From the NCBI GenBank assembly GCA_000002435.2, contig CM018790.1: DNA of 64,000 nt; one strand, 5' to 3'. The translations under genes were made by a program, and so were the position numbers. This document shows, piece by piece, positions 1 to 22,281 of the stretch. Below the pieces are notes generated by a model that had not been told where the DNA came from, did no database searches, and saw only the letters and a program-made list of their open reading frames with translations. Position 1 is the first letter of the stretch, and every line of letters begins with the position of its first letter. The stretch is from Giardia intestinalis (Eukaryota).

Positions 1-2
1 AC

Positions 3-3000: not shown

Positions 3001-4148
3001 CGCAGGCTCCCAATAAGGAGGTGATAATGTCGACTATAAAGGTGACAACGCCGGCCACATTTACCCCGGAGCTTAGAATGGTCATCAATTGGCTTCTGAT
3101 GCAGTCCTTTCCAGACCAGCTTGCATTCAGAGAATCCACAGACAGCGGGAAATATATCTTTCAAGGTGTGTCGGCCCGTGAACTCCTGAAAACGCCTAGT
3201 GAATACAGGGACCTGCAAGCGGTCGACAAGATACAGGGGAGTAACCGGTTCAACTTGACAACCCAGCAGGTAGACTTGTTCTTACAGTATAAGCCTTACA
3301 CAAACACTGGGGCCCTTTCTCACACGTCAGACATCTATTGCTGTGCTGATTCCATCCAGTCACTGCCACCTTGTGTCTTGTACACATCGGCTAGAGTAGA
3401 ACTCTACGTCAATAAGACGCTAGAGATGTCTGCGACCAACATTGAAGAAATCAAGAAGGCCCTTCGTATCTCTGTCCACTTGGAGGGCGTTGTGGAGGTT
3501 AGCAAAGCACTCCTCTGCCAAACACAGGACTTTCTGATCAGTCCGTGCTTCACTATGATGGAGCAAACCAAGCAGCGCTACGACAGACAAAAAGACATGC
3601 TGGTTGGGGAGTCCATGCTGCATTATGTGGGACTACCGTTGGTGGATGGGAGTAGCGAAGAGCCAGCTTTCTCCATGGGGTCCGTTCTTGTCGGATCTTG
3701 TACAGAGCTCTATCCGGGACGAAAGTACATTGATGAGCAACTGGAGGCAAAGATGTCCCCATGCATCCTGAGTACACTACTAAGATCTATCTATCACAGG
3801 AGGTTCCTGGCTGCAATTCTGGCAGGAGATATACTACCAGATCTTAAGTGCATCAGCGAAAAGGTCTCTGTGGCAATGAGGGATCTTTCAAATCCCCGCT
3901 GTAGGAAGTCCTCTAGAGAACTGGATATTGCTCTCCTCAACATACAGGAGTGTGAAGCTTACTCCAGGACTGGAATCATAAAGTATTATGAGGCACGCTG
4001 CGCAGGCCTGGACCAAAAACAACAGGAAGAACTAATAGGAAATGACCGCCTAACGACGAGCATCTCCCGCTGCTACAGGGCTGACTATAGCAAGGCATTT
4101 GTAGCCATTTGGAAGAGAAATGTTCAATTTATATTAAATGAAACCTGA
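3..4148 (+). CDS. DEAH-box RNA helicase, DHX37/Dhr1-like; 5' end runs off the window
   Basis: Walker A GSTGSGKSTQIPQF, motif II ILDEAHERT, motif III IMSATL, motif VI QRAGRAGR. The KLIIMSATL...LF...YPVAIHY and LPLYGTL patterns resemble Dhr1/DHX37. The ORF track starts at GTG 162, but I found no stop in that frame back to nt 3, so the true N-terminus lies upstream of the window. Confidence 0.9.
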   Translation, partial: SLSNTLSEPLDNVNIREPAPKLGPELHNSEPEPDANANAELEASNQQAHATKVVYDAQGDVVEIEGLPADLYPELIIDSLLHNDDVAFPRFSRVDTIEAERANLPSFGMQYSFLELLGKTDVLLIKGSTGSGKSTQIPQFLLEGGYSSLAYPYMMAGASCLKPQRDARYGYGGKIVVTQPRRIAAIGVSSRIAEELGQAVGDTAGYVIKQNSRVDNGGKDSTRVVFVTEGVLLKMIEADFLVSDTSIIILDEAHERTINLDLLIGLLGRICAARRSLFNNWLAKYKDLILNLTSQYTNFCSEPNSQKSRNGRVFGDVGGGDALAAQRYYEKDRDAEQEEQDEDEDEDDEGENEEDEEDSEDPDTSNESISCRETTDLSKLTFQRSRSFFQAAFSEKEDLSLPEYFDSKEYTTLLKEFAVLCRDPPPATPLKLIIMSATLHQKELLENDALFHCKPLVFEIPMRTYPVAIHYEIATEPNYVQAAIDKAITIHKYYDPGSILIFLSGKREIERCIDGLNSNLLHKGTHVEKKHNDKALRKHLHDKRAYRDTFDNTIFDPVQDVSDDDGEEGYESNPVLRMLQDYANEVKGEARRNELEAADRSVEPSQPLTQNSPAFTTNDAIFNTYNTVLTSNKISSTGQQQDEQEVEQLIKEFKECEAQRHTGVVKAAPPEPIILPLYGTLDIVEQSRIFSKEYQDKAKHRLIIVSTNVAEASITIPNIRYVVDAGKAKEKQEYNAVTALTVQFISKANADQRAGRAGRTAPGHCFRLYSPGLFQRMHDFPVPEILRLPITGLILAMLKLGASDVRSFPFVTHPGPDRLDKALAELVVLDAIRERSGTTTLIDLYTGSFISTDKESGTNTKTTKTNYALSKLGNLMAAIPLCPRMSKLVVKSVLYFHKQPTAHGSSFLIYAVLLASGYYSQLSTIAPIRWPVTSGSGDALSKLFTICALLCFKDKHSASRFCKEYCLRYDEAHQVLTTAIQIFNIINIPPFDDLFKQVYAQAPNKEVIMSTIKVTTPATFTPELRMVINWLLMQSFPDQLAFRESTDSGKYIFQGVSARELLKTPSEYRDLQAVDKIQGSNRFNLTTQQVDLFLQYKPYTNTGALSHTSDIYCCADSIQSLPPCVLYTSARVELYVNKTLEMSATNIEEIKKALRISVHLEGVVEVSKALLCQTQDFLISPCFTMMEQTKQRYDRQKDMLVGESMLHYVGLPLVDGSSEEPAFSMGSVLVGSCTELYPGRKYIDEQLEAKMSPCILSTLLRSIYHRRFLAAILAGDILPDLKCISEKVSVAMRDLSNPRCRKSSRELDIALLNIQECEAYSRTGIIKYYEARCAGLDQKQQEELIGNDRLTTSISRCYRADYSKAFVAIWKRNVQFILNET

Positions 4149-4157
4149 GCGAATTAA

Positions 4158-4472
4158 ATGTTACCGCAGGCACAGGGGAACACGAATGAGATAAGCCTCA
4201 GAGCTCCAGAAGGCGGCCGTAACATGGTCCTAGCTAAGCCTGACTTCAGTAATGCGCCGCAGACTGACGTGAAAAACCGTATAAGGTGTTTCCTAGATCG
4301 TGCTCGTGCTCTTCCAGAGTGTGCACCCAACGCTTCGGAGCCTATTGTGTTGGACAGTAACAGTGATTATTCGGGCGGTGAGCATGATGGGTCCCTTGGA
4401 GTGATCATGGATGTAATAGAAATAGGTCCCGCAGAATCACGGGAGAGGATTGAAGGCGGAGAAGCTACATGA
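4158..4472 (+). CDS. small hypothetical protein (104 aa), uncertain
   Basis: ATG preceded by A/T-rich gaattaaATG, 9 nt after the helicase stop. It fills an otherwise unusually long 316-bp convergent spacer and overlaps the 3' end of the HECT gene by 8 nt. No recognisable domain. Confidence 0.3.
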   Translation: MLPQAQGNTNEISLRAPEGGRNMVLAKPDFSNAPQTDVKNRIRCFLDRARALPECAPNASEPIVLDSNSDYSGGEHDGSLGVIMDVIEIGPAESRERIEGGEAT

Positions 4473-7400
4473 GCCCAAAGCCTTCGCAGCACTCGATGGC
4501 GCAGAGAAGCCTGTTCATGAGTGTTTCCTTTGAGCTGTAAGAAGGCAGACAAAGTATGTTAAAACAGGTATGGGCACCAGGCAATCGAGAGTCATCATCT
4601 CCATTTGGAATTATTTTAAGTCCTATGTTCTGCACGCCGCCAGCTGGCACCCTGTCGGAGCCGGTGATGAAGCGAAGGAGCCGCCGCTGCTGCTCTTGAG
4701 TCAGCTCTGCAACAATCCTCCAGAAGTTCTTTATATTAGGATGAGAGCTAGAATATGGGTTCTCGTAAGCTGTGAACGGCTCTAGAAGAGAGAAGTTCAG
4801 GTCTACTTCTCCGGTCAATGCCAGGTCCAGGTCAGACGCTGTGAACATGGCTAACGAGCGTGCCTTAGCCATACTAAGGAAGCCCGATCGGATGAATTCA
4901 AATATCTTTTTATTATATATCGTTGCAATTTGTTTGAGACGAATAAATAATGGTAAGGTTCGCAGATTGACCGGCAAAAGCTCTATATCATAAGGGGCTG
5001 TCAAGATATGGTGTCTATCTTTGACCAGCTCCTTAAGCTGCCACAGGATAGAGTTGGGAGGAAAACTATTAGAACAGAGAAAATCGCCGAAGTGTGAGAT
5101 TGTACGAACGCTGACAGTCCGGTTCATGGATACCAGTTCTTCGCTGACGATTTCTGTTAAGATGGCTCCGAGACCGACAAAAGTGAGAATAGGGTCACTA
5201 GACTCTTGTAAATTGACAGTCAACTGTGAGTCTTCGTTGTGAGCGTGTTTCCAGAGATTAGTGAGCGAGAAATACAGCTCCTCATCAACATCGTGCAAAT
5301 CCTCTCGTGTAATTACTGTGTAAGAGTGCCCTAGTAAAAGCTTGAAGAAGATAGGAGGAAATATTGAGGAAACGGTAGCGCCACTCACAAGCGAGATCCC
5401 CAACATGGCCCCAAGCTGGCAAAAGAGATTACGTAGATCATAGAGATAGCGTTCCTGAGTTGGTGACAGTGCATACTTCTCCGTAGTAAGAAAGTATGGG
5501 TCGTGGTTGGTACAATCTCTGATGCGCTGCCAATTAATATAATAGTATTGTGTCTCTGAATTAAACGTGAAATAGCCCTTGTGGTCAGTAATGAATGCTG
5601 GGAGCAAGTCATTGAATAGCTCTCGAGACGGGCCGCCAAAGTCTACGGCCGCCTCTCCCGAGAACTGAACTCTGATGGGTCTTCTAAGCAGAAGCCGGTG
5701 GACCGGGGAGAGCCACTCGTAAGATAGTTCTTCAGCTGCAAAGGACATGAAATACGCCAGGAAGTCTCCTGCAAGGGTCTTCCTCTCAGCGTTGATGCAG
5801 AGGAACGGGGATTGCCTCGAGCAGCGAATCATATACCCCAGTTCATACAACAAGATATTCAGCTTCGTCTGAGGATTCAGTAGAAACGGATATGAGCAGA
5901 AGGTGAAGAGTTTGGAAATAGCATGCTTATTTGTTTCCACTTCGCCGACTTTACCTACTATATTTTGATCAGCGTGTCTCGGTATGGCCAAGTGCAGCAT
6001 GTCTAGCATTCTTTCGTGGTTAGAATTGTAGATAGATGCAACAGTATCCGTAGTTGCGGTATTGCGAGGTACACTGATAATCGATCCTTCCACCAGACGA
6101 AAGGAACTTGTTTTGCGCTGAACAGGAGCGCTCGGCTTACGTAGCTTGTAGTAGCATCTAGGGCCTAAATATTGCTGCAGACGGGAAATCTCATATCCCA
6201 ACAGCTGGTCTAGAAGAGCTTCATCTAGGTCGAGGCTCGCAGTGACTATGTCCTCGTTGACATCCTGCAACGCTGTTCTTAACTCTTGAGGTATCAAGCT
6301 TTCTAATTGCAAATAAGCTTTGCTGGCCCTCAAAAAGTAGTTGTCTGGGTCGAACAATATTGCAAGGCATTGAGCATCGATTCTCCAATCGTAGGACGGT
6401 GATGATAGGAACTTATTGTGGAAGAGATCATTTGGAATAATTGGAACCATGTCCAGGCGCTGCACATCATCAGTAGCTCCTGCTAAGAATATTGTTTGCT
6501 GCAAGTTAGGTGGTAGAAGAAAAGATAGTGCGTCTGCTATAGATCTGAGATTACCATCGTTTAGGCACTGATGCTGTTGAGATATCCGTTCATAGATTTG
6601 TGGAGAGAGTTGGTTGTAGTTCAAGAGGCTCTTCAGTTGATTAGCTATTTCAGAATTAGCCAGTTGTGGAGTGGAATAACTGATTTCGAACAGCACCTGC
6701 GGTGCGATAAATGGAAACGTATAGCTTGTGAAGTTGTTGGACACGTAGAGTAACCTAGAAAGCTCACAAAGAGAACTCAGTGTGTGGTTAAAGTCCAGGA
6801 TGTCCACGAGAGTAAGCCTGTTGACATCATACGTATACTTTGACTGAGAATTCTCAGACCAAAATATCGGATCGTTAATCGGATAAACGATGCAGTGCTC
6901 CGCTCCAATTATTCTAGTGAACTGCCTAGGCTGGTCAAAACTATACACGTGGGCATTCCTGATAGGAGCACTGGGCTTTTGTTGAAGAATTCTTTCTAAG
7001 GTATTATTAATTGCAGCATTAGATAGGCGAACTAATGTGGTCAGTATGTGTACTGAAGTGTCTAGAGGAAGCGTGTTAAGAAAGGCACGCATCTTAATGC
7101 AAAGACGTAGACGTATGCCTGTATTTTCTTGCAGCGCTAAAAGGACGCTAGCTATTGAGTCTAAAAGGTGTGAACTAAGATTGAAGTAGCGTTCTGTCGA
7201 GAAGAGAAGCAGAAGAAGCATAAAAACATGCGCATCGGAACAGAAAAGAGACGGCTTGACGGCAATTGTTGCGAGAGCAGATTTGAAAAGGTCACCAAGC
7301 TTATTCATGAAGGCCAGTATGGGGAGCGGATCCTCACACTTATCATACTGCAAAAGAATTATCTCTTGAAAGAGTGTATAATTAAGATAGGCGTCGTGGA

Positions 7401-8033: not shown

Positions 8034-10298
8034 TTACGTTACATCATGTTCCTTCTGCTCAAGAAATCCATCAAGTAGAATGAGCATAGGTTTGAACACG
8101 TACTCAGACTCTTTCTTTAGAGACGCTAGCTCATTATTCTGAAGAGGCTTGGCTGAGTACAGTGCATCTAGAAAGACAGCCATCAAAACCAAAAGAGGCA
8201 CAAGCGCCCAGATACACACCATGGTTAGAGTGTTAGTTGCTAGCCGCTGCAAGCCCAGCACTCCTATCTCATATAAAAGGACACAGATTGCCATCTCCAA
8301 AGCGCTGCCATCAAACCGTCCACCCTCAAAGATCCTGTGCCGTTCTAGATGGTGTACGTGACAGCGTGCATACAGAAAATCGGCACCAAAGAGCTGTGCG
8401 GCAGAGGCCATCATAAAGCAGAGCAGAATGGCCAGCGTGATCATAAGAATGCGAAGAAGAGTAAGAAACGCGTTTTTGCGCTTAATCCGCCGCACTGCCC
8501 GGATATTATATTCCAGCCGCCTTAGAATGCTAACGATCACTGCGTGGCAATCCCTGAGAATACGTTCGTTGTCAACAAAAATGGATTGCTCAAGGGACCA
8601 ACAGAGCTCATCGGTAGATGCTAAGAGCTCACCGATTCGGCTGGTAGAGGCACAACTTTGGTGTAAGCCGTTTCCAAGACCAACCTCTGAGCTTGCTGGG
8701 CCCTGAGAAATGATAGAGTGAGCATCATAAGTATTTGGGTTTACGACCCGGAGCATGGTGCCGCATTGGCTAATGAGCTTTCCGGCCATTGCGTTAACGA
8801 TTGCTTGTGAAGCAGCAAGGGTCTTAACTACATTTGACTGCTGCAGCGAATCAGCTAGTGTATAGTTCTGCTGCTGAGAGGGTGCCACTGACGAAGAAAG
8901 GAACTTATCCTGCTTGTCTGCAGATAAGGTCAAAGTAGAGATGCCCAAATGTGTTGGCTCCTGCGAGAGCTGTGGCAGTGCACCTGTTTCTACTTCGCTA
9001 GCTCCATACTGTTGCGGTCTGTTGCTTAGAGTAGCACTCAATTTAGTGACTTCAAGAACTATGTTTGACGTGTCGACAAGCGCTCTTGTTTGCTCATTAA
9101 GACATCTTATAGTATCGCATATATCTTGTTTTAGCCTCGTCGTTTTAGCCTGCTGGTTTGCCATTTTTGCATTGCCATAATGGGGGATACAGACTAGATT
9201 CATTTTGAAACGTCTGTATGGGGAGAGCAATATGAGTGACGAGGCGTACTCCTGAATGGCGTCAATACACGATTGTTTATCTGTAAGACGATCACACTTA
9301 GTAATTAGAATAGTTGTTTTTCCAAAAAGCTCATTTGATGAACTGATGTAGTGTAGTAGCCTTCCATTTTCCACAGAAAAGCCTTCGGTTTTTGTATCTA
9401 TACCACAGCTTGTTGTAAAAAGGATCTTATCAACTTGATGAAAGAGCGCCTTGATTGTGTTTTCAAACACTCGAGTTTCTGCCTTAGAAAAAAGCGAGCT
9501 CGGCTTGGCTTGTTTGCCTCGCTTGGACAGGTTGCTCAGAGAGCTGAGAATTCCTTTTGAAGTCGACGACTCTATCACGTAGCGGTAGAAAAATGGTACT
9601 TCGATGAAAATAAAGGGACACGTAGGCCCCATTAACTGGTCAGATGCTCCATGAAGTATGTTGTTACTCTGTGGTAAATGTGAGACAGACTTTTCTAACT
9701 TATCTATCGAATTATAGAGGGTAGCAGAATTAGACGAGACATCTTTATATCTAGAAGCCGAAGTAGATGAAGAATCACGTCCCCTTGGCAGCTGCTTAGT
9801 GCCCTCAGCAGTCGACTTAGTAGAGTAGTACATGGATTTCCCGGTGGGGGAGAGGTTCGCGTTGTGAAACCCACTTTGTAATTGGCTCTGGTCTGTTGAA
9901 AGCACCGATCCAGGAGTCTGCTTACTATATGAATTAAAAGCGCTGCAACGAATATGCGAGCCTGGGAATCCGTTTTCACGAAAGCAAGCATGGATGGATG
10001 GCAGTGTGTCTGCAAGACTGTCTGTAAAATAGGCAACATCGTTGACGCAAGGCACGTATATATTGATGCACATTCCCTCTGAGCGAAGCCTTGATCCGGT
10101 GATGTGACTTATAAGCGACGATTTTCCGCTGTAGTCCTCGCCAAGAACCAAAATCACTGGTCGTGGATTGGGAGCCTTAAAGGGGGTTGTAATGCGAAGT
10201 CTTTGACCAGCTGAGATTATGTGATGTACATATAGGTCTGAGATGGCTGCTCGTGTTTGCAAAGCCACATCTAAGCCTTGATCTGTATTAGAGATCAT
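8034..10298 (-). CDS. P-loop NTPase/GTPase-like membrane protein (dynamin/EHD-superfamily-like), hypothetical
   Basis: Walker A LVLGEDYSGKSSLISHITG and a TKCD (N/TKxD-like) G4 motif. Three hydrophobic helices near the C-terminus (LILMITLAILLCFMMASAA, ICVLLYEIGVLGL, VCIWALVPLLVLMAVFL). ATG start confirmed. Confidence 0.75.
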   Translation of the reverse strand: MISNTDQGLDVALQTRAAISDLYVHHIISAGQRLRITTPFKAPNPRPVILVLGEDYSGKSSLISHITGSRLRSEGMCINIYVPCVNDVAYFTDSLADTLPSIHACFRENGFPGSHIRCSAFNSYSKQTPGSVLSTDQSQLQSGFHNANLSPTGKSMYYSTKSTAEGTKQLPRGRDSSSTSASRYKDVSSNSATLYNSIDKLEKSVSHLPQSNNILHGASDQLMGPTCPFIFIEVPFFYRYVIESSTSKGILSSLSNLSKRGKQAKPSSLFSKAETRVFENTIKALFHQVDKILFTTSCGIDTKTEGFSVENGRLLHYISSSNELFGKTTILITKCDRLTDKQSCIDAIQEYASSLILLSPYRRFKMNLVCIPHYGNAKMANQQAKTTRLKQDICDTIRCLNEQTRALVDTSNIVLEVTKLSATLSNRPQQYGASEVETGALPQLSQEPTHLGISTLTLSADKQDKFLSSSVAPSQQQNYTLADSLQQSNVVKTLAASQAIVNAMAGKLISQCGTMLRVVNPNTYDAHSIISQGPASSEVGLGNGLHQSCASTSRIGELLASTDELCWSLEQSIFVDNERILRDCHAVIVSILRRLEYNIRAVRRIKRKNAFLTLLRILMITLAILLCFMMASAAQLFGADFLYARCHVHHLERHRIFEGGRFDGSALEMAICVLLYEIGVLGLQRLATNTLTMVCIWALVPLLVLMAVFLDALYSAKPLQNNELASLKKESEYVFKPMLILLDGFLEQKEHDVT

Positions 10299-10371: not shown

Positions 10372-11996
10372 GCTTTGGGCCCGGGCGGGCACGCTCTGGC
10401 CTGCAGCGCCGCGACCTTCCAGGGCGTCTCCGGGGCCCGGCGAGGCACACCCGCCGCCGCGGGCTGTGCCGGCCGGCCACAGGCGGCTGCTGTTCGCTTC
10501 CTCGCGACCGCTTGCCACCCAGGGTCCTGCCTGTCGCTGAGGGTCCTCGGATCAGGCCCTGTCTCCGGCCAGCCGATCGAGCCGCTACCGGATCACCAGG
10601 AAGAGCAGACCCACCCATTCTGCGGCCGACACACTACCACTCTCGGAAGCGCTACGCACATAGAGAGTCTACAGCGCACTCAGCCTGACAGCTGTGATGA
10701 GCCAATACTCGACAACGCAGCATAGACAAGGGCACCGTCACGCATAGACGCCTCCACATAGTTTGCTTTGGTTCATTACGGCAAGCTTGCCAGCTGCTGT
10801 CCGACTAAATTACTCAAAGAGAACGGCTGCGGTGGACAACATTCTTGCTCATTGAATTTGAGATCCGATGATTCGGATGCCATCTAGTTCTGGTGGAGAA
10901 AGAGATCTCCATGAGTCCCTGCTGCAGGAATCACCAGTTCAGCTCTTGCACTACTGTTTCAGGGACACTCCGTCCCCTTTGCTTACTCCCCTTGGGCGCT
11001 AGAACTTGGGCACTGCCTATGTCTTGTTACATGGGTCGATGGCGCCCCCAACTTCCGTCGCAATGTCTCGTAGGGACCACCGACGTTAGTAGAGGCGTAG
11101 CTCAGATGGCGAGAGGCTGGGGCCTAACGATTAACATTGCTAAGCGTAAGAGCATCCAGAAGGTATGAAAAGTTTTCTTCCTGGGAACCCAGTCTCGAAA
11201 GAGCGGCTATCTGCAGCCCTCAGGGCGATCGCGAGTACATCAAAGCATCTGAAGCTGGTAATTGATACGCCATATGACTTCTACGAATCCTTCAACGGAC
11301 TGGTCAGGGTCTCTAGCTGAGATACTTGTTTCGGACCTGAAGAAGCCCATTGCGTTTTTGGCTATACAGGACAGCGGCAGCCTGGGGGTCCACCTACTGG
11401 GCGTCTACTACAGCAGCTGGCGGTGCCTGACATCATCGAGTAGATGGGTGCCGGTTGTAGAGAGAGACGGCCTAACGACGAACCGGTCCTGATCGCTTCT
11501 GATGCTTTGGATGACGCCTCGACAGACCGAAGCATCACCCCAAGTGTGCTGTGCAGATGGACCAGCCCACACGTCACTGAGCCAGACACACTGCACAGGA
11601 TGGGCGCCGATGCGGTCTCGTGCTGGGTGACGGAGCACCTCTGCGACCCATGAACCGAGGACTGGACCTCTCCCCTGATACCAGCGCATGGGAGTACTCC
11701 ATCGACATCCACGAATGCGTACCACAACCTCAAGATAGAGGCGCATGGGGAGCGCGCCCTCCCGGTCATACTCGGAACCGATGATCGCTTCATGGGGAGA
11801 CGAAGAGGCACCCGAGGAACGGGGTAGACACCGGGGTCGTGGCGTGCGATCTTTGTCGTAGAGCACCAAGACCTTGAAGTACATGGCCAGAGTCAACTGC
11901 TCTGAGGCCAGATCGCCGTGGATGATGCAGACCCGAGACAACGGATGCTCACTAGACATCAGACGAGAATTGACCCCGACGGGCCAGAGAGAAGGG
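10372..11996. repeat. Left arm of large inverted repeat (partner 18119-19771)
   Basis: Positions 10372-11531 are the exact reverse complement of 18612-19771, with left+right coordinate always 30143. I checked this by direct comparison of 10741-10800 with 19343-19402, and by three identical mirrored ORF pairs (10893-11168/18975-19250, 11262-11492/18651-18881, 10348-10725/19418-19768). From 11532 to about 11996 the arms still align but with many mismatches and indels. Confidence 0.95.
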
Positions 11997-12414
11997 AGGA
12001 ATCCTAGAGGCACCGCAAGAAACAGCAGGGACTCTTAAAAGAGACGGGGCATAGGAGTTCTTCCGCCGGGATTCGAGAACACCCGACTCTCGGATTTCTG
12101 ATCTCAGCTAATGTATGAGTGAGAGACTTGCCTAGAGTGGTGGTGGCTCGCATGAGAGACCACTCAGATAGCAAATGAGAGTAAATTAGGGGACCTTATT
12201 GAAAAAGAAACGGTGACCCGAGCTTCACCCATCGTGAAACAAGACCAAGGAGAAGCGCCATGGGTAGAGCAGAGAGTCTGCGAGAAGGCCTGAACCCCGA
12301 AAGGACCGATGTACGCATTCGGTCTGAGCATGCACCCATGAAACGGTAGAGAAATGTACCGGGCCCTGGATGTATCACTGGAGAGGACCCTCTTGTTATG
12401 TTATCAATGACCAA
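11560..12414 (-). pseudogene. Decayed protein-kinase-domain remnant (NEK-like), left copy
   Basis: Minus-strand ORF 11408-12013 reads ...SRVCIIHGDLASEQLTL (HRDLKxxN-like loop) ...LVLYDKD (DFG position) ...SSPHEAIIGSEYD (APE-like) ...YLEVVV... VLRHPARDRIGAHPV (subdomain XI-like). Upstream ORF 12196-12414 has HPGPGTFLYRF (Gly-loop-like). It is broken by stops and frameshifts. The right arm carries a more degraded copy (AVRHPARDRIGAHPVQCVWLS in ORF 18269-18781). Confidence 0.5.
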
Positions 12415-12523
12415 CAGTCGTCTCTGAACTGGTCAGAGCTTGAGCGAGGATCACACGCAAGATCTCTGGACAATCCTCAGATAGCCCCAGCAGCATAGTG
12501 TAATAAGCTACATACAACAATGC

Positions 12524-12538
12524 GTTTACTACCTAAGT
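12524..12538 (-). promoter_or_regulatory. VSP-type extended polyadenylation signal ACTTAGGTAGTAAAC
   Basis: The minus strand reads TAG ATGT ACTTAGGTAGTAAAC immediately after the VSP stop. This matches the published vsp consensus ACTYAGRTAGTRAAY, which contains the Giardia AGTRAAY poly(A) signal. Confidence 0.85.
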
Positions 12539-12542
12539 ACAT

Positions 12543-15245
12543 CTACGCCTTCCCGCGGCAGAGGAACCACCAACACAAGAAGCCCACAAGACCACCTACA
12601 ACAACGATCACAGCAACAGAGATGCCCGCGATCGCGCCAGTGCTGAGCCCGCTCTTGTTGACGCTTCCGCCGTTGTCAGTGCCATCCGTCTTGACGTAGC
12701 AGATGACAGAACCACTATTACCAGTTGGAGGATCGCAGCTTGCGCAGTTAGCGACACCCTGGATGCTACCGCTTGTCTCTGTACACAGCTTGCATGCTTT
12801 ACTGGCGTCCAAGTAACGGCCAGGTGGACAGGCGCTGCACTTATCGGGTTGATTGGCCACGGTGCATGTGGCACAAGTGGAATCGCATAATGGACACATG
12901 TTCGAGACAGCTGTCAAGCCATTCGCACATGTTTGGCATTTTCCATCCCCAGTGGGCGTTGTGCAGATGCTCTTCCCGGGGAGCCTGTCAGTCTTGTAGC
13001 ATCCGCCCTCCTGGATGAAGTATCCGGCGGCGCAGACCGTGCAAGCACCGTTAGCGGCAGTGGTGCAGAACAGAGTCCTGGCCGCATTGCTCGTGCAGAC
13101 GCCATTGAGCGGCACGTTGCTCCCCTTGCACTTCGAGCAGTACTTGGTACCTCCAATTGTTAGGCCGCACGTCTCGCACTCCGGGCCTTCCACGCATTGC
13201 TCCACGCACGTGCCGCCCTCATTAAGCTTGCTTTCGTCGGCGTACCTCAGCATCTTCCCGGCGGGACAGGCCGTGCACTTGGAAGCGCCGGCCCCGCTGC
13301 ACTCCGCACAGGAGGGGTCGCAGGGCGCGCACGTTTGTCCGGATAGATACGTTCCGACAGGGCAGGCATCTAAGCATGCCTTCTTCGTCGGGGTCAGATG
13401 CTTGCCTGGTTCACACGCCTCGCAAGTCTGCTTGTCCGAGGAGCACGTCTGGCAGTTCTCGATCGGGCAGTCGGCCGGCGCTGGGTTGCACGCCCTGTTA
13501 TCCCCGCTGGCCACGAATCCCGGCTTGCACGCCTCGCACGTCGCCTTGTCCGAGGAGCACGTCTGGCAGTTCTCGATCGGGCAGTCGGCCGGCGCTGGGT
13601 TGCACGCCCTGTTATCCCCGCTGGCCACGAATCCCGGCTTGCACGCCTCGCACGTCGCCTTGTCCGAGGAGCACGTCTGGCAGTTCTCGATCGGGCAGTC
13701 GGCCGGCGCTGGGTTGCACGCCCTGTTATCCCCGCTGGCCACGAATCCCGGCTTGCACGCCTCGCACGTCGCCTTGTCCGAGGAGCACGTCTGGCAGTTC
13801 TCGATCGGGCAGTCGGCCGGCGCTGGGTTGCACGCCCTGTTATCCCCGCTGGCCACGAATCCCGGCTTGCACGCCTCGCACGTCGCCTTGTCCGAGGAGC
13901 ACGTCTGGCAGTTCTCGATCGGGCAGTCGGCCGGCGCTGGGTTGCACGCCCTGTTATCCCCGCTGGCCACGAATCCCGGCTTGCACGCCTCGCACGTCGC
14001 CTTGTCCGAGGAGCACGTCTGGCAGTTCTCGATCGGGCAGTCGGCCGGCGCTGGGTTGCACGCCCTGTTATCCCCGCTGGCCACGAATCCCGGCTTGCAC
14101 GCCTCGCACGTCGCCTTGTCCGAGGAGCACGTCTGGCAGTTCTCGATCGGGCAGTCGGCCGGCGCTGGGTTGCACGCCCTGTTATCCCCGCTGGCCACGA
14201 ATCCCGGCTTGCACGCCTCGCACGTCGCCTTGTCCGAGGAGCACGTCTGGCAGTTCTCGATCGGGCAGTCGGCCGGCGCTGGGTTGCACGCCCTGTTATC
14301 CCCGCTGGCCACGAATCCCGGCTTGCACGCCTCGCACGTCGCCTTGTCCGAGGAGCACGTCTGGCAGTTCTCGATCGGGCAGTCGGCCGGCGCTGGGTTG
14401 CACGCCCTGTTATCCCCGCTGGCCACGAATCCCGGCTTGCACGCCTCGCACGTCGCCTTGTCCGAGGAGCACGTCTGGCAGTTCTCGATCGGGCAGTCGG
14501 CCGGCGCTGGGTTGCACGCCCTGTTATCCCCGCTGGCCACGAATCCCGGCTTGCACGCCTCGCACGTCGCCTTGTCCGAGGAGCACGTCTGGCAGTTCTC
14601 GATCGGGCAGTCGGCCGGCGCTGGGTTGCACGCCCTGTTATCCCCGCTGGCCACGAATCCCGGCTTGCACGCCTCGCACGTCGCCTTGTCCGAGGAGCAC
14701 GTCTGGCAGTTCTCGATCGGGCAGTCGGCCGGCGCTGGGTTGCACGCCCTGTTATCCCCGCTGGCCACGAATCCCGGCTTGCACGCCTCGCACGTCGCCT
14801 TGTCCGAGGAGCACGTCTGGCAGTTCTCGATCGGGCAGTCGGCCGGCGCTGGGTTGCACGCCCTGTTATCCCCGCTGGCCACGAATCCCGGCTTGCACGC
14901 CTCGCACGTCGCCTTGTCCGAGGAGCACGTCTGGCAGTTCTCGATCGGGCAGTCGGCCGGCGCTGGGTTGCACGCCCTGTTATCCCCGCTGGCCACGAAT
15001 CCCGGCTTGCACGCCTCGCACGTCGCCTTGTCCGAGGAGCACGTCTGGCAGTTCTCGATCGGGCAGTCGGCCGGCGCTGGGTTGCACGCCCTGTTATCCC
15101 CGCTGGCCACGAATCCCGGCTTGCACGCCTCGCACGTCGCCTTGTCCGAGGAGCACGTCTGGCAGTTCTCGATCGGGCAGTCGGTCGATACTGATGTACG
15201 GTGAGCCTGTGTCACTGTAAAAACTAGGAGAAATCCTACCAACAT
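12543..15245 (-). CDS. Variant-specific surface protein (VSP) with 38-aa tandem repeats
   Basis: N-terminal signal peptide MLVGFLLVFTVTQA, numerous CXXC motifs, a GGCY motif (IQEGGCYKTD), and a C-terminal TM helix followed by the invariant tail CRGKA. The start context cTAATGTT is Inr-like. Confidence 0.97.
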   Translation of the reverse strand: MLVGFLLVFTVTQAHRTSVSTDCPIENCQTCSSDKATCEACKPGFVASGDNRACNPAPADCPIENCQTCSSDKATCEACKPGFVASGDNRACNPAPADCPIENCQTCSSDKATCEACKPGFVASGDNRACNPAPADCPIENCQTCSSDKATCEACKPGFVASGDNRACNPAPADCPIENCQTCSSDKATCEACKPGFVASGDNRACNPAPADCPIENCQTCSSDKATCEACKPGFVASGDNRACNPAPADCPIENCQTCSSDKATCEACKPGFVASGDNRACNPAPADCPIENCQTCSSDKATCEACKPGFVASGDNRACNPAPADCPIENCQTCSSDKATCEACKPGFVASGDNRACNPAPADCPIENCQTCSSDKATCEACKPGFVASGDNRACNPAPADCPIENCQTCSSDKATCEACKPGFVASGDNRACNPAPADCPIENCQTCSSDKATCEACKPGFVASGDNRACNPAPADCPIENCQTCSSDKATCEACKPGFVASGDNRACNPAPADCPIENCQTCSSDKATCEACKPGFVASGDNRACNPAPADCPIENCQTCSSDKATCEACKPGFVASGDNRACNPAPADCPIENCQTCSSDKQTCEACEPGKHLTPTKKACLDACPVGTYLSGQTCAPCDPSCAECSGAGASKCTACPAGKMLRYADESKLNEGGTCVEQCVEGPECETCGLTIGGTKYCSKCKGSNVPLNGVCTSNAARTLFCTTAANGACTVCAAGYFIQEGGCYKTDRLPGKSICTTPTGDGKCQTCANGLTAVSNMCPLCDSTCATCTVANQPDKCSACPPGRYLDASKACKLCTETSGSIQGVANCASCDPPTGNSGSVICYVKTDGTDNGGSVNKSGLSTGAIAGISVAVIVVVGGLVGFLCWWFLCRGKA
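13432..15184. repeat. Perfect tandem repeat, 114-bp unit x about 15.4 copies, inside the VSP CDS
   Basis: The unit cttgtccgaggagcacgtctggcagttctcgatcgggcagtcggccggcgctgggttgcacgccctgttatccccgctggccacgaatcccggcttgcacgcctcgcacgtcgc recurs every 114 nt. It encodes ADCPIENCQTCSSDKATCEACKPGFVASGDNRACNPAP. All three plus-strand frames give identical translations in every unit, so the copies are identical or nearly so at nucleotide level. Confidence 0.97.
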
Positions 15246-15247
15246 TA
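15241..15247 (-). promoter_or_regulatory. Initiator-like element around the VSP start codon (TAATGTT)
   Basis: The minus strand reads c-TAATGTT-gg. This fits the PyAATGTT initiator described for 'VSP with INR' genes. Position only; no functional evidence. Confidence 0.45.
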
Positions 15248-15878
15248 GCCGGGTTAGTATGCCACTGCTCTTCTGTCAGGCCGGTGTATTGGCCGCGAGC
15301 AGTGAGAGACAGCCGCTCTTGCTCTCTCGATCAGTTGGACTGAAGAAGGATAAGATAGGAGCACGCCCACCGGAGGCCGGCTGATAGTGCAGTTCCCCCT
15401 GACTTCGATAGGAACAGGACCAGTGATGACTAGACTCAGACCGCACCTCTCTTGTGGAATGATTGTTCGGGGCGCACTCCTGTACATTGCTGTCACTGTA
15501 TCACTGGGCCCGCCTGCAAGTGCGCTCAGAGATCCCACGGGTAAGCTGCGCCCACTTCTCGACCGTCCGGAGACGATGGCTAGTTGTGGATAACATACTA
15601 AGAGCTCCTCTCCATCGATGCATCCAGAGCTCAGTGTGGTCCCAGTCGGCGTGCCCTGTCGAGGGTGCTCCATGTCGGCCTCCAGGATCCGGCCTGCTCA
15701 GGGCCATACAAGCCGTTAGTATGCCTCTCCTTGGCCTGCCATCGACAGCTCGCACTGGCCGCCCTGCTCGGGTAGTAGCCAAGGTCACTCCAAAGGGTGG
15801 CTCCGGATTGCAGTTAAGATTAGCGATGGCTGTTGGCTCCACTCCCCGTTCCAACTGCCGCGGAGGGCGCCCTGGGAG

Positions 15879-18016
15879 ATGCTAGTAACAGTGCAGTTAG
15901 CGGCTTTGCAGAGCCGATGGGCGCTGGTGGCATCCCCGTGCTCAGCGGGGGCCTTCAGTGTTATCTACTCTCCCAAGGGATGCCCCTACCTCGCCGTGAG
16001 AGAGATCCGGCTCGACGGTCTGGATCAGCACGGTGTGGATGCTAAAGCGTGGGCTGGTCGCCCTTCTTAACATCTTTCACCTGGGAGTCCTCAAGCACTA
16101 TCAAGTGATTGAAGACGAGGGCCTCATCTACGTCGTCACGGACCGGCACGACAAGACCCTTGAGCGCCTCCTCACCGAGCACAAACGAAGGAAGATCCCC
16201 GTCCCTATCGCTGTGATCCTCTCTGTCATGAAGCAGGTCGCTGCCGCCCTCGCCTACCTCCACGGCCTCAGCGGAGTGGGTGCCGACGGTCGCCCCTACA
16301 AGGGCCTCGTCCACCGCGACCTCAAGCTTGCGAACGTCCTCGTCAGCGCAGATGGTGAACACTTCATCATCGCCGACTTCGGCCTCTGTAAGGACGCCCT
16401 GAGATGCGGGAGCACCATTGCAGGCACGGCAGTATACATGGCCCCCGAGATTCTCCTCCGTAATGAGACCAGCCATGCTTCCGACGTGTGGAGCCTCGGG
16501 GTCATCATTTATGAATTAGTAACTCTGAGGAGACCGGACTTCTTGGGGGGCAAGGAGCCAGCAGAGGTCTTCGTCGACGGGTGGAGGCCGGACCTGAGCG
16601 GTGTCACTGATGGCTTCATAAAGAGTGTTCTGGAGAGGATATTCGTGCTGGAACCAGAGGAAAGACTGACGGCCAGGGAGCTGCACGAGACGCTCACTGC
16701 GGCTGACATCCCAGTTAGTGAGCTGAGGGGCAGTGCGTGATGCTGAGGTACAAGTGCGGATCCTTGGAGGCTGCGCTGAATGGCGCTAACGCCAGGATCG
16801 CGCTGCTGGAAGAGGAGGTTAAGACTAAGTCTACTAAGATTGACGCACTCGAAGAGCAAGGTAAGGAGCACCTAGCCATGATTAAGGCACTGGAGAGTAG
16901 GCTTGCACAGTTCGGTGACAGGATGAACACGACTGACCCTCAGTCCAGCCTCCTTTTGCTGCCCAGGCTGATGCGTGCCGCGCATACGAATAGCATGGAA
17001 ACCGTCTGGATGCTGCTTGAAGAAGGACTCGGCGTTGGCTAGCGTGACGAGCAGGGGCACGTCAGTCCCGTCGAGTTGCTTGTTGGGGAGGAGAGGGGCC
17101 TCCAGGACAGGAACGGCTGGACCCCCTGATGATCACCACAGAGGAGGGCTATGCAAGAGCTGCCTCCCTTCTGGTCCCATATGAGAAGGACCGGATCGGC
17201 AGCGAAGGCAAGACGGCCTTGGTGATTGCGGCAGAGGCAGGACATGGAACTGTGGTGGAGGCCATCGACCCAACCGATGAGAATGGCGTCACGGCGCTCA
17301 TGCGAGCTGTTAATAGAAACTACGTGGGGCCTGTGAAGGCAGTCATACTTAGCCAGAGAAGGAGGAAAACATACAAAGAGGTCATAGCAAGCGGATGGTA
17401 CATGCGCACAGGAACAGCTCTGATGATGGCTGCGGCACATGGATACGCAGAAATAGTAGAACTGCTAGTGGAACACGAAAAGGGGAGAAAGTAGGCGGTT
17501 GGGCCGCTCTCATATTCGCGGCACGGTGCGACCGTTCCAATGACCCCCTGGTGGACTATATTGGGCGCGTTGAGCTTTTGATGGAGTATGAGAGCAATAT
17601 CTCAGGGTGGACGGAGCTCATGTATGCAGTAGCACGAGGGCAGAAGGGAGTGTAGAGCTGCTCAAGCAGGAGACTGGGATACAGAATAACGATCATCAGA
17701 CTGTCCTCACGTGGACGGTGTGCAATGATCACCCAGAGTGTGTCAGGCCCCTGCTGAAGGACGAAGGCTGCATGCAAACGACCAAGGGGGGACCGCCCTT
17801 ATGAACGCAGCATATAGCAACACCGTGGAATGTGCAAGACTTCCTAAAGAAAACGAGAAGGAGCTGAAGACAATTTCTAGCTGCCATGGTCACTCGCCCG
17901 GTACCACTGCCCTCAATATCGCTAAGAAGAAGGATCGCAAAGAGATAGTAGACATCCTCCCAAACGAGATCTACTCTGCTTCATCAAGGTCGGCTTGCCA
18001 GCTCCTGTCCGAGTAA
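15879..18016 (+). pseudogene. NEK-family kinase + coiled-coil + ankyrin-repeat gene, disrupted by multiple frameshifts
   Basis: N-lobe (SAGAFSVIYS...YLAVREIRL) is in frame 0 (15879-16070). The catalytic core (LVHRDLKLANVLV, ADFGLCK, GTAVYMAPE, SDVWSLGVIIYELV) is in frame 1 (16033-16740). The coiled coil (16737-17042) is in frame 0. Ankyrin units (GKTALVIAAEAGH, GVTALMRAV, GTALMMAAAHGYAEIVELLV, GGTALMNAAYS, GTTALNIAKKKDRKEIVDIL) are spread over frames 2, 1, 0 and 2. Confidence 0.8.
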
Positions 18017-18118
18017 ATCCGTCCAGGATCCGGAGTCCGGATGCCGCCCACTCTGGAGAAGAGCCTTGTGCATCCCGCCTAGGAGCCATTGGGTGCTCCA
18101 CTATATGCTTCGGGGCGT

Positions 18119-19771
18119 CCCTTCTCTCTGGCCCGTCGGGGTCAGCCATCGCCTGATATCTAGTGAGCACCCGTTGTCCCGGGCCTTGCGTCGGTCACGG
18201 CGATCCTGTCTCAAGAGCAATTGACTCTGGCCATGTACTCTGGAGTAGCTTTGTGGTGCTGATGCTCCATGACGAAGATCGCGCCCCACGACCCCGGGTG
18301 TCGACTCCCGTTCCTCGGGGTGCCTCTTCATCTTCTCGTGGAGGGCACCATCTGTTCCATTATCAAGGATGCGCTCCCCGTGCGCCTCTGTCTTGGAGTC
18401 ATAGTACGCATTCGTGGATGCCAGCGGAGCACTCCCATGCGGTGGTGTCGGGGGAGAAGTATGGCCCTCCTATTCATGGATCGAAGGGCGCTCTTGCAGG
18501 CGGTCCGTCACCCAGCACGAGACCGCATCGGCGCCCATCCTGTGCAGTGCGTCTGGCTCAGTGACGTGTGGGCTGGTCCATCTGCACCGCAAAGCACGCT
18601 TGGGGGAATGATTCGGTCTGTCGAGGCGTCATCCAAAGCATCAGAAGCGATCAGGACCGGTTCGTCGTTAGGCCGTCTCTCTCTACAACCGGCACCCATC
18701 TACTCGATGATGTCAGGCACCGCCAGCTGCTGTAGTAGACGCCCAGTAGGTGGACCCCCAGGCTGCCGCTGTCCTGTATAGCCAAAAACGCAATGGGCTT
18801 CTTCAGGTCCGAAACAAGTATCTCAGCTAGAGACCCTGACCAGTCCGTTGAAGGATTCGTAGAAGTCATATGGCGTATCAATTACCAGCTTCAGATGCTT
18901 TGATGTACTCGCGATCGCCCTGAGGGCTGCAGATAGCCGCTCTTTCGAGACTGGGTTCCCAGGAAGAAAACTTTTCATACCTTCTGGATGCTCTTACGCT
19001 TAGCAATGTTAATCGTTAGGCCCCAGCCTCTCGCCATCTGAGCTACGCCTCTACTAACGTCGGTGGTCCCTACGAGACATTGCGACGGAAGTTGGGGGCG
19101 CCATCGACCCATGTAACAAGACATAGGCAGTGCCCAAGTTCTAGCGCCCAAGGGGAGTAAGCAAAGGGGACGGAGTGTCCCTGAAACAGTAGTGCAAGAG
19201 CTGAACTGGTGATTCCTGCAGCAGGGACTCATGGAGATCTCTTTCTCCACCAGAACTAGATGGCATCCGAATCATCGGATCTCAAATTCAATGAGCAAGA
19301 ATGTTGTCCACCGCAGCCGTTCTCTTTGAGTAATTTAGTCGGACAGCAGCTGGCAAGCTTGCCGTAATGAACCAAAGCAAACTATGTGGAGGCGTCTATG
19401 CGTGACGGTGCCCTTGTCTATGCTGCGTTGTCGAGTATTGGCTCATCACAGCTGTCAGGCTGAGTGCGCTGTAGACTCTCTATGTGCGTAGCGCTTCCGA
19501 GAGTGGTAGTGTGTCGGCCGCAGAATGGGTGGGTCTGCTCTTCCTGGTGATCCGGTAGCGGCTCGATCGGCTGGCCGGAGACAGGGCCTGATCCGAGGAC
19601 CCTCAGCGACAGGCAGGACCCTGGGTGGCAAGCGGTCGCGAGGAAGCGAACAGCAGCCGCCTGTGGCCGGCCGGCACAGCCCGCGGCGGCGGGTGTGCCT
19701 CGCCGGGCCCCGGAGACGCCCTGGAAGGTCGCGGCGCTGCAGGCCAGAGCGTGCCCGCCCGGGCCCAAAGC
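18119..19771. repeat. Right arm of large inverted repeat (partner 10372-11996)
   Basis: 18612-19771 is the exact reverse complement of 10372-11531. 18119-18611 aligns to 11532-11996 with substitutions and a net 28 bp of indels. Weak similarity may continue to about 18016 / about 12090. The arm starts directly after the stop of the NEK pseudogene. Confidence 0.95.
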
Positions 19772-19863: not shown

Positions 19864-22281
19864 TCATATAACTGGGATATAACAGCATCCAATAATAACC
19901 CAGACAGCCGCAATGGTTTCTGCATATCCAAAGACAGAAACGTGCAGTCCTATACGCAGTTTATCCCCATGTGCCTCAACTATACTACGACTTTTATCGT
20001 TTGAAAGAAGCGTCTCTACAATAGGTGGAGCATAGAATCTTAGGCTCCCCATGACCTGCAACGGATAAACTATCAGTGTTTCACGAGAAGAAACATAATT
20101 TTTGAGCGCTACCTTCAAAGTCTCATTGCCTAACTGGCCGATAGTTCCACCCATGAGGCGTGTCTGTTCCCAGGATGCTACTGTGGGCGCCAATATCATA
20201 GAAAGCTGTTCAGATCTGGGTGTTGTCAGTCCAAGTGTTTGCCTCCGTGCTTCAATAAGCCTCCATATATCTGCTGTTAAATAACTGGACAGTGTAGCGG
20301 CCAAGGAGGGGCCAAACGGTTTTAGTATATTCTGGTTTTGAAGCAAACGTGGAAGACGGGTAGAAGTCACTAGATAATCATCGTCATCCATGTTATAGTG
20401 ATAGACATAGCTATTATAGACGCGTTCTATCATGGACTGATTGAAAGCTTTCCAAAATAAGGGCCTGGATATATCTAGAGATATGCCATGTATAAGTTGT
20501 TTTTCAGGTATGTATTGTAGTCTATTTGTACTTTGAATATTAACAAAAAGCATGGTTTCATTGAAAATGCAGTCTATTGTCTCATACGGAAAATGAATAA
20601 CAGTTCCAGCAGAATCAGAGTGTTTATCTATCTTGTATTGACCTTCTGTTGGCAACGAGTGCAGCTCTATCATACCTCCATGATCCGATAACAAGCAGTC
20701 CCAGAATTGAATCACCTGTGCACAGAGTGTGATAACGAACGCAGAGCGGACACTCCTATTTCCAGACACATCCGATTTTAGCCCTGGAAGAGCGCATGTG
20801 CCCAGAGCAACGAATGCCGGTATCTGATATCCTCTCAGCATCGAGCACAAGAGAACTGCCTTGTCAAACGGTGTACCAGCACCGACAGATAGCGTGGTGA
20901 TAACTCGAGACCAGACTAGCTCGTTGTTTCCTGATAGTCCAGCGGTGGCTGGAGTTGATTGGCGTCCAGGTGCTGGCATAAGTTGGATAAAGCGCATGCA
21001 ATAGCTAGCCGTTGGAAGGTACGAGCTTGTAAAGGGAGTGATAAGAGTGGAAATAGGGACCACCATTCCATCATCCCGAAGAGCATGGAGCTGAACAAAA
21101 CGCTTGTCTAGTCCAACCGAACTGGGCTGCGAGCCAAGATAGTCTCTCATAAATACGCTTGCGGTCCTATCATATTCTGCAAGTGCTCTGGAGACTGATC
21201 TTTTTGAGGTTGTTAATATGTCTCTAAGGGAGCGGAAGGAGGCTTCTTCAGAGACATCTGCACTGGTCAGAAGGGGCGTGAAAGTGATTGAAACGTTAAG
21301 AGTACCTAGCCGTATTTTTTCGGTTGGAGTGTTGGGTCCTGGTGCTTGAGAATAAGGGTACATGGGAACACTAACTGCCCCAGCCAGCAGAGAATTGGCC
21401 TTGGTCAGCTCAGTGAAGAACTCCACAAAGCCAACTCGTCCATGTGCATGAAGATACTGCATTCCTGAATAGCTGTGGAACACCGCAAGAAAGGTAAGGT
21501 CAGTTACTTTGAGATCTGAAATTGCTCTGAAAGAAGTCAGCGGAGTGGAGGATATACAGAATCGAATCTTTGAAAACGCTAACGGTGCAAGCCCTATAGT
21601 AGCATCACTTCTTTCACACTTGATTGGCGGACAGACATGCCGCAAATTTCCAAGAGCTATTGTGAGGGTAATCACGCCTTCCTCACTGACGCCAGATTGC
21701 CCACCAAGATTGTTACTACACGGAGGAGCAAGCTCACCCGAGGTGATCTGAACCTCTAGATGTTGTTCTACAAGAGTTCTAGACTCTCTAGCAGCGTGAA
21801 GCGCTGTAAGCATTGAGACGGAATCTCTAACCACTTCACTCATAGCACGTGTTGCCTGACGCTCTGTACTATTTAAATCATCGTGTGTATTCATAGACAA
21901 TACATTAGGCTGTGTGCCCCCCTGGACAGACTCCAAATGGCGGCGAGCTTGCTCTCTTCTTTCCATACGTTCCTCTGCAGACATTGATATGCAATCTGTT
22001 GGCTCTGCAGTGGCCCCAGAGCACTTCGACCTGTGAATAGCATATGCCTCCTTCACTGTTTGCTTATCAAAGGCCTGGTCAAAGTATCTTTCTGCCAGTG
22101 AGTGTACTAAGTTGGACTTTTCCAGGTATACTAAGAGACGCTTTTCTACGTCCCGTGGGTTCATATCTCTATCTATCTTTAGCTCTGGGTCCTTGGACTC
22201 ACTGAGTTCCTGGAAAATGCTCTGCAGCTGCTCTTTTGTAAGCTCTCTTAGAACGAACGCCTTAATGCTCTGGGAGTCCAT
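19864..22281 (-). CDS. Hypothetical protein, possibly CC2D2A-like (C2 + transglutaminase-like fold)
   Basis: 805-aa ORF with ATG start. The C-terminal half contains AVLLCSMLRGYQIPAFVALGT, MLFVNIQS, LDISRPLFWKAFN and a terminal ...AAVWVIIGCCY. These resemble my recollection of human CC2D2A ([40 protein letters not shown], ...SVWIYVASL). The assignment is unverified. Confidence 0.85.
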   Translation of the reverse strand: MDSQSIKAFVLRELTKEQLQSIFQELSESKDPELKIDRDMNPRDVEKRLLVYLEKSNLVHSLAERYFDQAFDKQTVKEAYAIHRSKCSGATAEPTDCISMSAEERMERREQARRHLESVQGGTQPNVLSMNTHDDLNSTERQATRAMSEVVRDSVSMLTALHAARESRTLVEQHLEVQITSGELAPPCSNNLGGQSGVSEEGVITLTIALGNLRHVCPPIKCERSDATIGLAPLAFSKIRFCISSTPLTSFRAISDLKVTDLTFLAVFHSYSGMQYLHAHGRVGFVEFFTELTKANSLLAGAVSVPMYPYSQAPGPNTPTEKIRLGTLNVSITFTPLLTSADVSEEASFRSLRDILTTSKRSVSRALAEYDRTASVFMRDYLGSQPSSVGLDKRFVQLHALRDDGMVVPISTLITPFTSSYLPTASYCMRFIQLMPAPGRQSTPATAGLSGNNELVWSRVITTLSVGAGTPFDKAVLLCSMLRGYQIPAFVALGTCALPGLKSDVSGNRSVRSAFVITLCAQVIQFWDCLLSDHGGMIELHSLPTEGQYKIDKHSDSAGTVIHFPYETIDCIFNETMLFVNIQSTNRLQYIPEKQLIHGISLDISRPLFWKAFNQSMIERVYNSYVYHYNMDDDDYLVTSTRLPRLLQNQNILKPFGPSLAATLSSYLTADIWRLIEARRQTLGLTTPRSEQLSMILAPTVASWEQTRLMGGTIGQLGNETLKVALKNYVSSRETLIVYPLQVMGSLRFYAPPIVETLLSNDKSRSIVEAHGDKLRIGLHVSVFGYAETIAAVWVIIGCCYIPVI

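Follow-up and report, generated by a model that had tools for sequence, protein, structure and literature searches.

Does a surface-antigen gene that is enclosed by a long inverted repeat sit on a DNA segment that flips? The question is raised by a locus of Giardia intestinalis in which one gene of the VSP family and a NEK-ankyrin pseudogene lie in the loop of a palindrome of 9.4 kb. The locus was studied within a stretch of 64,000 nucleotides from contig CM018790.1 (assembly GCA_000002435.2), referred to here as the window, which exact protein matches place in Giardia intestinalis WB C6. Antigenic variation in Giardia is thought to work without DNA rearrangement, and given this, a VSP locus built like an invertible element merits checking. 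The outcome is a real palindrome, which appears to be recombinationally active and whose orientation is stable. It is probably an old inverted segmental duplication around a dead retrotransposon, kept by gene conversion and without a dedicated function.

Extent and reality of the inverted repeat

A repeat search over the window returned a perfect inverted repeat of 1183 nt, 100% complementary and with a coordinate sum of 30143 (Table 1). Inward of this core there are 94 nt at 96% identity, followed by sequence at 79–87% with indels, which reaches 11997 on the left and 18118 on the right. The full arms measure 1626 and 1654 nt and are 93.6% identical over 1660 aligned columns when compared by BLAST, with all 67 mismatches and 24 gaps falling in the inner ~440 nt. 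The arms are separated by 6.1–7.0 kb, the loop between the full arms (~1.65 kb each) being ~6.1 kb long. An earlier note on this DNA had described 10372–11996 and 18119–19771 as reverse complements of each other, which agrees with the ends found here, and had called the arms perfect over 1.16 kb; the perfection stands, but the measured length is 1183 nt. It had also placed a single VSP gene (minus strand) and a single frameshifted NEK-ankyrin gene (plus strand) between the arms, as Pfam confirms, and the genes outside them at 10298 and 19864, behind spacers of 73 and 92 nt, which is likewise correct. The left one codes for a protein of 754 aa and the right one for a CEP76-like protein of 805 aa.

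The outer edge of the repeat is abrupt: identity drops from 100% to unrelated sequence within 2 nt, and the match begins at GCTTTGGGCCC on both sides. At the inner edge the identity between the arms decays gradually instead. This difference points to a structural boundary on the outside and to the end of a conversion tract on the inside. The window contains no second inverted repeat of 60 nt or more and, according to blastn with a word size of 9, no further copy of an arm. A foldback-type DNA transposon, a 9.4-kb mobile element carrying the VSP gene as cargo, would also present long terminal inverted repeats whose outer ends are abrupt, and the repeat does lie between two conserved genes. Such an origin is nevertheless exceedingly unlikely, considering that a target-site duplication or direct repeat was looked for at the outer edges and none was found, that Pfam detects no transposase domain, that the window holds no second copy, and that the outer right arm is native DNA in its ancestral position (see below).

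Consensus polishing can exaggerate the identity of a perfect repeat, and the earlier note had allowed for one arm being an assembly artefact. No arm was made by mis-assembly or polishing, as both junctions turn up in numerous independent assemblies of short reads. In dozens of independent samples of assemblage A, the short-read contigs break off precisely k-1 nt into the arm on either side: for k=31 this is 122 nt downstream of the CEP76 stop codon (92+30) and 103 nt ahead of the start of the 754-aa gene (73+30), and for k=141, in one assembly, it is at 214 nt. The last 30-mer of a right-flank contig is the reverse complement of the first 30-mer of a left-flank contig, so that both unique flanks lead into one and the same 30-mer, from opposite directions. 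One short-read contig reaches 1137 nt into the left arm and shows zero differences from the window. In addition, the ORFs (open reading frames) of the locus were already in the 2007 annotation, the gene spacing is base-identical in two assemblies based on Oxford Nanopore (ONT) reads, and the DH isolate (sub-assemblage A2) has the same structure. An artefact can thus be given hardly any credence.

Table 1 Features of the palindrome and of its immediate surroundings (positions in the window).
Feature	Position	Strand	Evidence or remark
Left arm, full	10372..11997	+	Repeat search, BLAST; DH shows the same extent
Right arm, full	18118..19771	-	Repeat search, BLAST
Left perfect core, 1183 nt	10372..11554	+	100% identical to 18589-19771
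Right perfect core	18589..19771	-	Repeat search
Intergenic segment downstream of the CEP76-like gene, native	19546..19754	-	P15 ACVC01000033 12557-12769 orthologous, collinear
Derived duplicate of this segment, now beside the 754-aa gene	10389..10597	+	P15 comparison
Dead 5'-truncated non-LTR retrotransposon ORF remnant, C-terminal half	11070..11903	+	tblastn; 3' end into the loop
Mirror retrotransposon ORF remnant	18184..19073	-	tblastn; C-terminus better kept, 69-71% aa over 35 residues
VSP gene, intact, 900 aa	12543..15245	-	Pfam VSP, E=3e-164
Tandem array inside the VSP gene, 114-nt unit, 15.5 copies, 99% matches	13414..15184	-	Repeat search
NEK kinase + coiled-coil + ankyrin pseudogene, at least 4 frame breaks	15879..18014	+	Pfam; tblastn with DH ORFs
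Left flanking gene GL50803_17385, 754 aa, conserved	8034..10298	-	Start 73 nt from arm
Right flanking gene, CEP76-like, 805 aa, conserved	19864..22281	-	Stop 92 nt from arm

Origin and concerted evolution of the arms

The arms were searched by tblastn with Giardia reverse-transcriptase proteins, the queries including relatives supplied by an ORF with a reverse-transcriptase domain downstream of the CEP76 orthologue of P15 (assemblage E). The matches have E values between 1e-9 and 2e-17 and cover residues ~105–491 of ~494, in pieces that lie in different frames with stop codons between them, all six frames being closed. Since reverse-transcriptase matches continue in broken frames up to residue 491, the arms contain a retroelement relic, which the earlier note did not recognise: the inner two-thirds of each arm are the decayed C-terminal half of a 5'-truncated ORF of the non-LTR (non-long-terminal-repeat) type, with the 3' ends facing the loop. 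No credible Pfam domain was found in any arm ORF of 60 aa or more, no VSP remnant in the arms by tblastn with the VSP C-terminus, and no tRNA in the arms by ARAGORN. The Rfam search of the arms at E≤1 gave only chance-level snoRNA-like matches, far below gathering scores.

Each arm also comprises about 225 nt of native intergenic DNA. The stretch from 19754 to 19546 aligns with the DNA downstream of CEP76 in P15 (71% over 214 nt, E=2.8e-7), continuing the match of the spacer at 19862–19782, and no counterpart of this segment was found upstream of the 754-aa gene in P15. As P15 carries the segment only downstream of CEP76, the right-arm copy is native and the left-arm copy derived. The presence of this DNA in both arms argues that a stretch with a retroelement relic in it was duplicated in inverted orientation, rather than simply for two insertions. 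If elements of one retrotransposon family had inserted twice independently, in opposite directions and with no segmental duplication, this would account for the dead ORF remnant in each arm, for inner parts that are just 83.5% identical, as old separate copies would be, and for P15 having copies at the same locus in the other polarity. Two such insertions are unlikely to be the explanation, however, because an insertion would not carry ~225 nt orthologous to the native CEP76-downstream DNA of P15, because the outer and the inner end of the two copies fall at identical points in WB as well as in DH, and because the outer 1183 nt are identical.

The comparison with DH indicates how the arms have been kept alike. 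The DH contig AHGT01000023 is collinear with the window from 18510 to 10242 and has the same order and strands as WB (inner right arm, NEK pseudogene, VSP, left arm, 754-aa gene), with the same outer and inner edges of the repeat. The DH arms are 100% identical to each other over the outermost 437 nt and 99.2% over the innermost 375 nt. Between WB and DH, the arms are 92–100% identical per 100-nt bin in their outer part and ~81% in their inner part, and the flanking genes are 98.8–99.4% identical. In a joint alignment of the inner arms, the left and right arms are 83.5% identical within WB and 98.7% within DH, and the two P15 copies (a and b) are 93.0% identical; identities between isolates are 70–82%. 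At the sites where the WB arms differ, DH sides 31 times with the left arm and 33 times with the right arm. The arms therefore cluster by isolate and not by side, from which we infer that they undergo concerted evolution by arm-to-arm gene conversion, and that the repeat is older than the split between sub-assemblages A1 (WB) and A2 (DH). The perfect core of WB is read as a recent conversion tract; as judged from these alignments, conversion would have covered the outer 1183 nt and the ~94 nt at 96% in WB, and essentially the whole arm in DH.

Taken over its whole length, the cassette is ~84–87% identical between WB and DH, and the C-terminal part of the VSP 78% identical in amino acids. The divergence climbs from 1% in the flanks over 3–8% in the outer arms to 14–19% in the inner arms and the loop, a gradient that points to very rapid evolution or, alternatively, to an ancient haplotype.

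Orientation of the loop

The orientation of the loop was compared at the level of assemblies, namely WB Sanger 2007, WB PacBio 2020 (the window itself), WB ONT 2020, beaver ONT 2020 and DH. It is the same in all five assemblies that resolve the locus, and the inverted form is seen in none. In the 2007 assembly, XP_001706158 (19864), 161 (17129), 162 (16042) and 166 (8034) run monotonically, presuming that the order of RefSeq accessions follows that of the contig. Two small ORFs of the loop, which correspond to GL50803_104063 and GL50803_104062 of the 2007 annotation (exact protein match), serve as markers in the ONT assemblies together with GL50803_103849 from the right flank. In the WB ONT hybrid assembly (Pollo et al.), GL50803_104062, GL50803_104063 and GL50803_103849 are at 732446, 733530 and 754667 of utg176, which equals their positions in the window (16045, 17129 and 38266) plus a constant offset of 716401. 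In the beaver ONT hybrid the same three genes fit a single coordinate sum of 615609, the contig being reversed. An inverted loop would have shifted GL50803_104062 by ~2.4 kb and placed it on the other strand. One orientation thus predominates in all assemblies compared, and the comparison of isolates that the earlier note had proposed for detecting inversion gives the same one for WB (three assemblies), beaver and DH.

In known invertible systems such as hin, fim and the shufflons, short repeats are acted upon by a dedicated recombinase, and inversion uncouples a promoter or swaps coding ends. The present locus resembles them in having a surface-antigen gene on a segment bounded by inverted repeats. 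It differs in its 1.65-kb arms, in the lack of a recombinase and in that promoter and gene would flip together. No recombinase domain was found by Pfam among the proteins of the window and the arm ORFs, and both the initiator and the ORF of the VSP lie inside the loop. On these two grounds the locus does not match a site-specific inverton. A flip would not uncouple the promoter from the VSP either, as both lie in the loop.

Recombination by homology is another matter, as a crossover between the arms would invert the loop, and the arms are a plausible substrate for such an inversion. The flip-flop substrate proposed in the earlier note holds as far as the arms exchange sequence, which the concerted evolution in WB and DH indicates, but not for the inversion itself, found in none of the five assemblies. 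In its strongest form, the proposal would be that recombination between the arms flips the loop with VSP and NEK often enough to serve antigenic variation or VSP silencing. The perfect identity over 1183 nt is adequate for homologous recombination, the arms demonstrably exchange sequence, and ONT data have led to the prediction of 162 inversions within the WB isolate, some structural variants being enriched in VSPs (Pollo et al. 2020, PMC7048089). The five assemblies agree, on the other hand, which would happen by chance in ~6% of cases if each were a coin flip, the linkage between promoter and gene is kept, no recombinase gene is present, and the loop genes are not among the entries in the part of the structural-variant table of Pollo et al. 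2020 that was searched, a part without the relevant contig names. We therefore regard an invertible antigen cassette as improbable. The arms do appear to recombine, and it is gene conversion alone, and not flipping, that the sequence comparison points to.

The length of the loop bears on the structures that the repeat could adopt. The formation of cruciforms and hairpins drops steeply with the length of the spacer, and 6–7 kb is far past the effective range, so that extrusion of either from this loop is unlikely. The arms could also act at the level of RNA: read-through of all 9.4 kb, or transcription of the relic arms toward each other, would yield a double-stranded RNA which could help to silence the VSP through RNA interference (RNAi). 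RNAi and antisense transcripts have been implicated in VSP control, small RNAs from Giardia retroelements have been reported, and the arms are complementary over 1.2–1.6 kb. A hairpin would, however, require transcription to run on through two genes for more than 9 kb, where the transcription units of this genome are short, and the arms contain no VSP sequence, so that small RNAs derived from them would not target a VSP. We consider a role of this kind very improbable.

The locus in other assemblages and among known systems

In P15, the same locus contains an inverted repeat of 1246 nt (91%), and this repeat and the relic portion of the WB arms are homologous. Its polarity is opposite to that of WB, the 3' ends facing the flanking genes on the outside. 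Only part of the DNA between the P15 arms is assembled; this part includes a longer copy of the retroelement, a GTPase-like gene and an ankyrin gene, and neither VSP nor NEK was seen in it. The P15 sites are at 12953–16146 of ACVC01000033 and 1–6819 of ACVC01000066, one of the 3' ends being located 22 nt upstream of the ATG of the 754-aa gene. The longer retroelement has a reverse-transcriptase domain and upstream zinc-finger-like ORFs, and the genes near it code for a GTPase-like protein of 765 aa and an ankyrin protein of 910 aa. A single inversion or deletion was considered as the link between the P15 and WB layouts, and none fits.

For assemblage B, the short-read contigs from the CEP76 side all end at the same point, 155 nt beyond the CEP76 stop codon, and others begin ~195–209 nt before the 754-aa gene. 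As all these contigs break close to the flanks, a repeat or a heterozygous region seems to begin there too. Nothing but the 12-mer TGCTCCTCCCGC, inverted, is common to the two contig ends; they do not reveal an inverted repeat, and no similarity to the WB arms was detected. The same is true for a further assemblage (ERR3333380), in which the contigs break near both flank genes, with no similarity to the WB arms and no inverted repeat. In the ONT assembly of GS (assemblage B), GL50803_104063 maps weakly to 332780–333142 (-) and 338550–338912 (+) of utg731_pilon, a contig that is unrelated to the present locus. These two sites are inverted and 5.4 kb apart, which hints at another inverted duplication involving an ankyrin or NEK gene.

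These observations can be combined into a probable history. The palindrome, with arms of ~1.65 kb and a loop of ~6.1 kb, would sit at a synteny break between two conserved genes of assemblage A. Its arms would be made up of native CEP76-downstream DNA, of ~470 nt with no match, and of the decayed C-terminal half of a non-LTR element facing inward, and repeated gene conversion from arm to arm would keep them alike. The repeat would then be a by-product of a retroelement-associated duplication, leaving the locus recombinogenic, and most likely has no dedicated regulatory role.

Several points weigh against this history. The P15 repeat has the opposite polarity and different inner genes, and no single inversion interconverts the two layouts. 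The WB inner arms have drifted, being only 83.5% identical over ~440 nt, and conversion there must therefore have ended long ago. The divergence of the cassette between WB and DH (~14%) far exceeds that of the flanks (~1%). In each arm, ~470 nt (10600–11070 and 19073–19543) match nothing found, although they are 92–97% conserved in DH. The relic itself can be placed, from its sequence, at the level of non-LTR elements only, and not in a family (GilD as opposed to GilM/GilT). As for the orientation, that of DH hinges on how the 454 assembler threaded a near-perfect repeat, and the comparison was of assemblies and not of reads, so that a minority inverted isomer may exist.

The VSP gene of the loop codes for a protein of 900 aa with a signal peptide, a CRGKA tail and 15.5 copies of a 38-aa repeat, and has the initiator TAATGTT at 15245. 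The ORFs of 729, 614 and 598 aa that lie over its array on the opposite strand are by-products of the repeat. The supplement of Adam et al. 2010 (PMC2996952) has an entry for vsp100 (GL50803_33279) with TR114, 11 copies, 748 aa and TAATGTT, and the gene is tagged there solely as a tandem-repeat VSP and in no inverted arrangement. Since 748 aa equals 900 minus four 38-aa repeats, the VSP of the loop is probably vsp100, with its array fully resolved here. The copy number varies between assemblies: the list from the 2007 assembly gives 11 for what is probably the same gene, against 15.5 here, and in the DH contig the gene is collapsed to 392 aa. The NEK pseudogene is placed head-to-head with the VSP, and its kinase and ankyrin fragments, as detected by Pfam, are scattered over several frames. 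Its kinase part is broken in WB near residues 55–60 and 279–281. The DH counterpart (AHGT01000023, 477–2555) is less decayed, with ORFs of 411, 160 and 101 aa, and some of its breaks could be 454 errors. The 805-aa gene of the right flank is KAE8302296.1/XP_001706158.1 and has CEP76 peptidase-like and C-terminal domains in Pfam. It is annotated as “Centrosomal protein” in WB and its 99%-identical DH orthologue as “Ankyrin repeat protein”, which looks like an annotation error.

Inverted duplications of VSP genes and retroelement relics around them have been published, and the novelty that the earlier note had seen in a VSP locus with inverted repeats was overstated. Adam et al. 2010 (PMC2996952) found 14 pairs of identical VSP genes in inverted orientation, 2.2–3.8 kb apart and with abrupt divergence points. 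Xu et al. 2020 (PMC7000408) counted 19 pairs, with a reverse-transcriptase remnant between four of the seven diverging pairs and a NEK gene in one, and a 2022 preprint (bioRxiv 10.1101/2022.03.07.483299) reports that retrotransposon relics surround duplicated VSP pairs. Altogether, the literature gives 14–20 inverted duplicated pairs. Like the WB pairs (of the vsp1267 type), the present locus has kb-scale, (near-)identical inverted copies on one chromosome with abrupt divergence, is associated with reverse-transcriptase remnants and NEK, and breaks short-read assemblies. In the pairs, however, it is the VSP ORFs that form the arms, and the spacer of 2.2–3.8 kb (up to 12.4 kb) holds the remnant or NEK where there is one, whereas here the arms consist of relic and intergenic DNA and the spacer of 6.1–7.0 kb holds a single VSP and the NEK pseudogene. 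The locus thus shares with the pairs the inverted copies, the abrupt edges and the association with relic and NEK, and has no VSP ORF in its arms. It is the same kind of retroelement-associated inverted duplication, though not a “VSP pair”. In the Giardia VSP literature compared, no description was found of a layout in which relics form the arms and the loop holds just one VSP.

The behaviour of the arms also has a parallel outside Giardia. The arms of the human Y-chromosome palindromes are homogenised by gene conversion, so that they are alike within a lineage and diverge between lineages, and enclose a unique spacer; inverted segmental duplications in general can mediate inversion by non-allelic homologous recombination. 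The present arms behave in the same way, most clearly in their outer part, which is 100% identical between left and right in both WB and DH and ~95–97% identical between WB and DH; they also enclose a unique spacer and are a potential substrate for inversion. Unlike the Y palindromes, the arms are far smaller and without functional genes, their homogenisation has lapsed in the inner quarter in WB, and no inversion polymorphism is seen. As regards the relics, Arkhipova and Morrison, as cited by Xu et al. 2020 (PMC7000408), are said to have described in 2001 dead interstitial non-LTR relics of Giardia, of the GilD type. These have in common with the present remnants a 5'-truncated reverse-transcriptase/endonuclease ORF with frameshifts and stops, the interstitial location and the proximity to VSP genes. 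The remnants described here differ in forming an inverted pair inside a larger duplication that includes host intergenic DNA, and are assigned here at a level above the family.

With its relic arms and a VSP in the loop, the locus represents a third layout beside the known head-to-head and tail-to-tail VSP duplications. It also shows cleanly how repeat arms evolve in concert in the two sub-assemblages, A1 and A2. Since unique sequence borders both arms on the outside and the inner part of either arm is sequence-tagged, the locus also makes a convenient and well-anchored site at which rates of mitotic gene conversion and crossover could be measured in Giardia. It is very improbable that the palindrome is a working recombination module, in which rare crossovers would mix the loop orientations within a clone, and the orientation, or convergent transcription of the relic arms, would affect whether the VSP can be expressed. 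If this were true, it would add a DNA-level layer to the antigenic variation of Giardia, which is now viewed as purely epigenetic or RNA-based.

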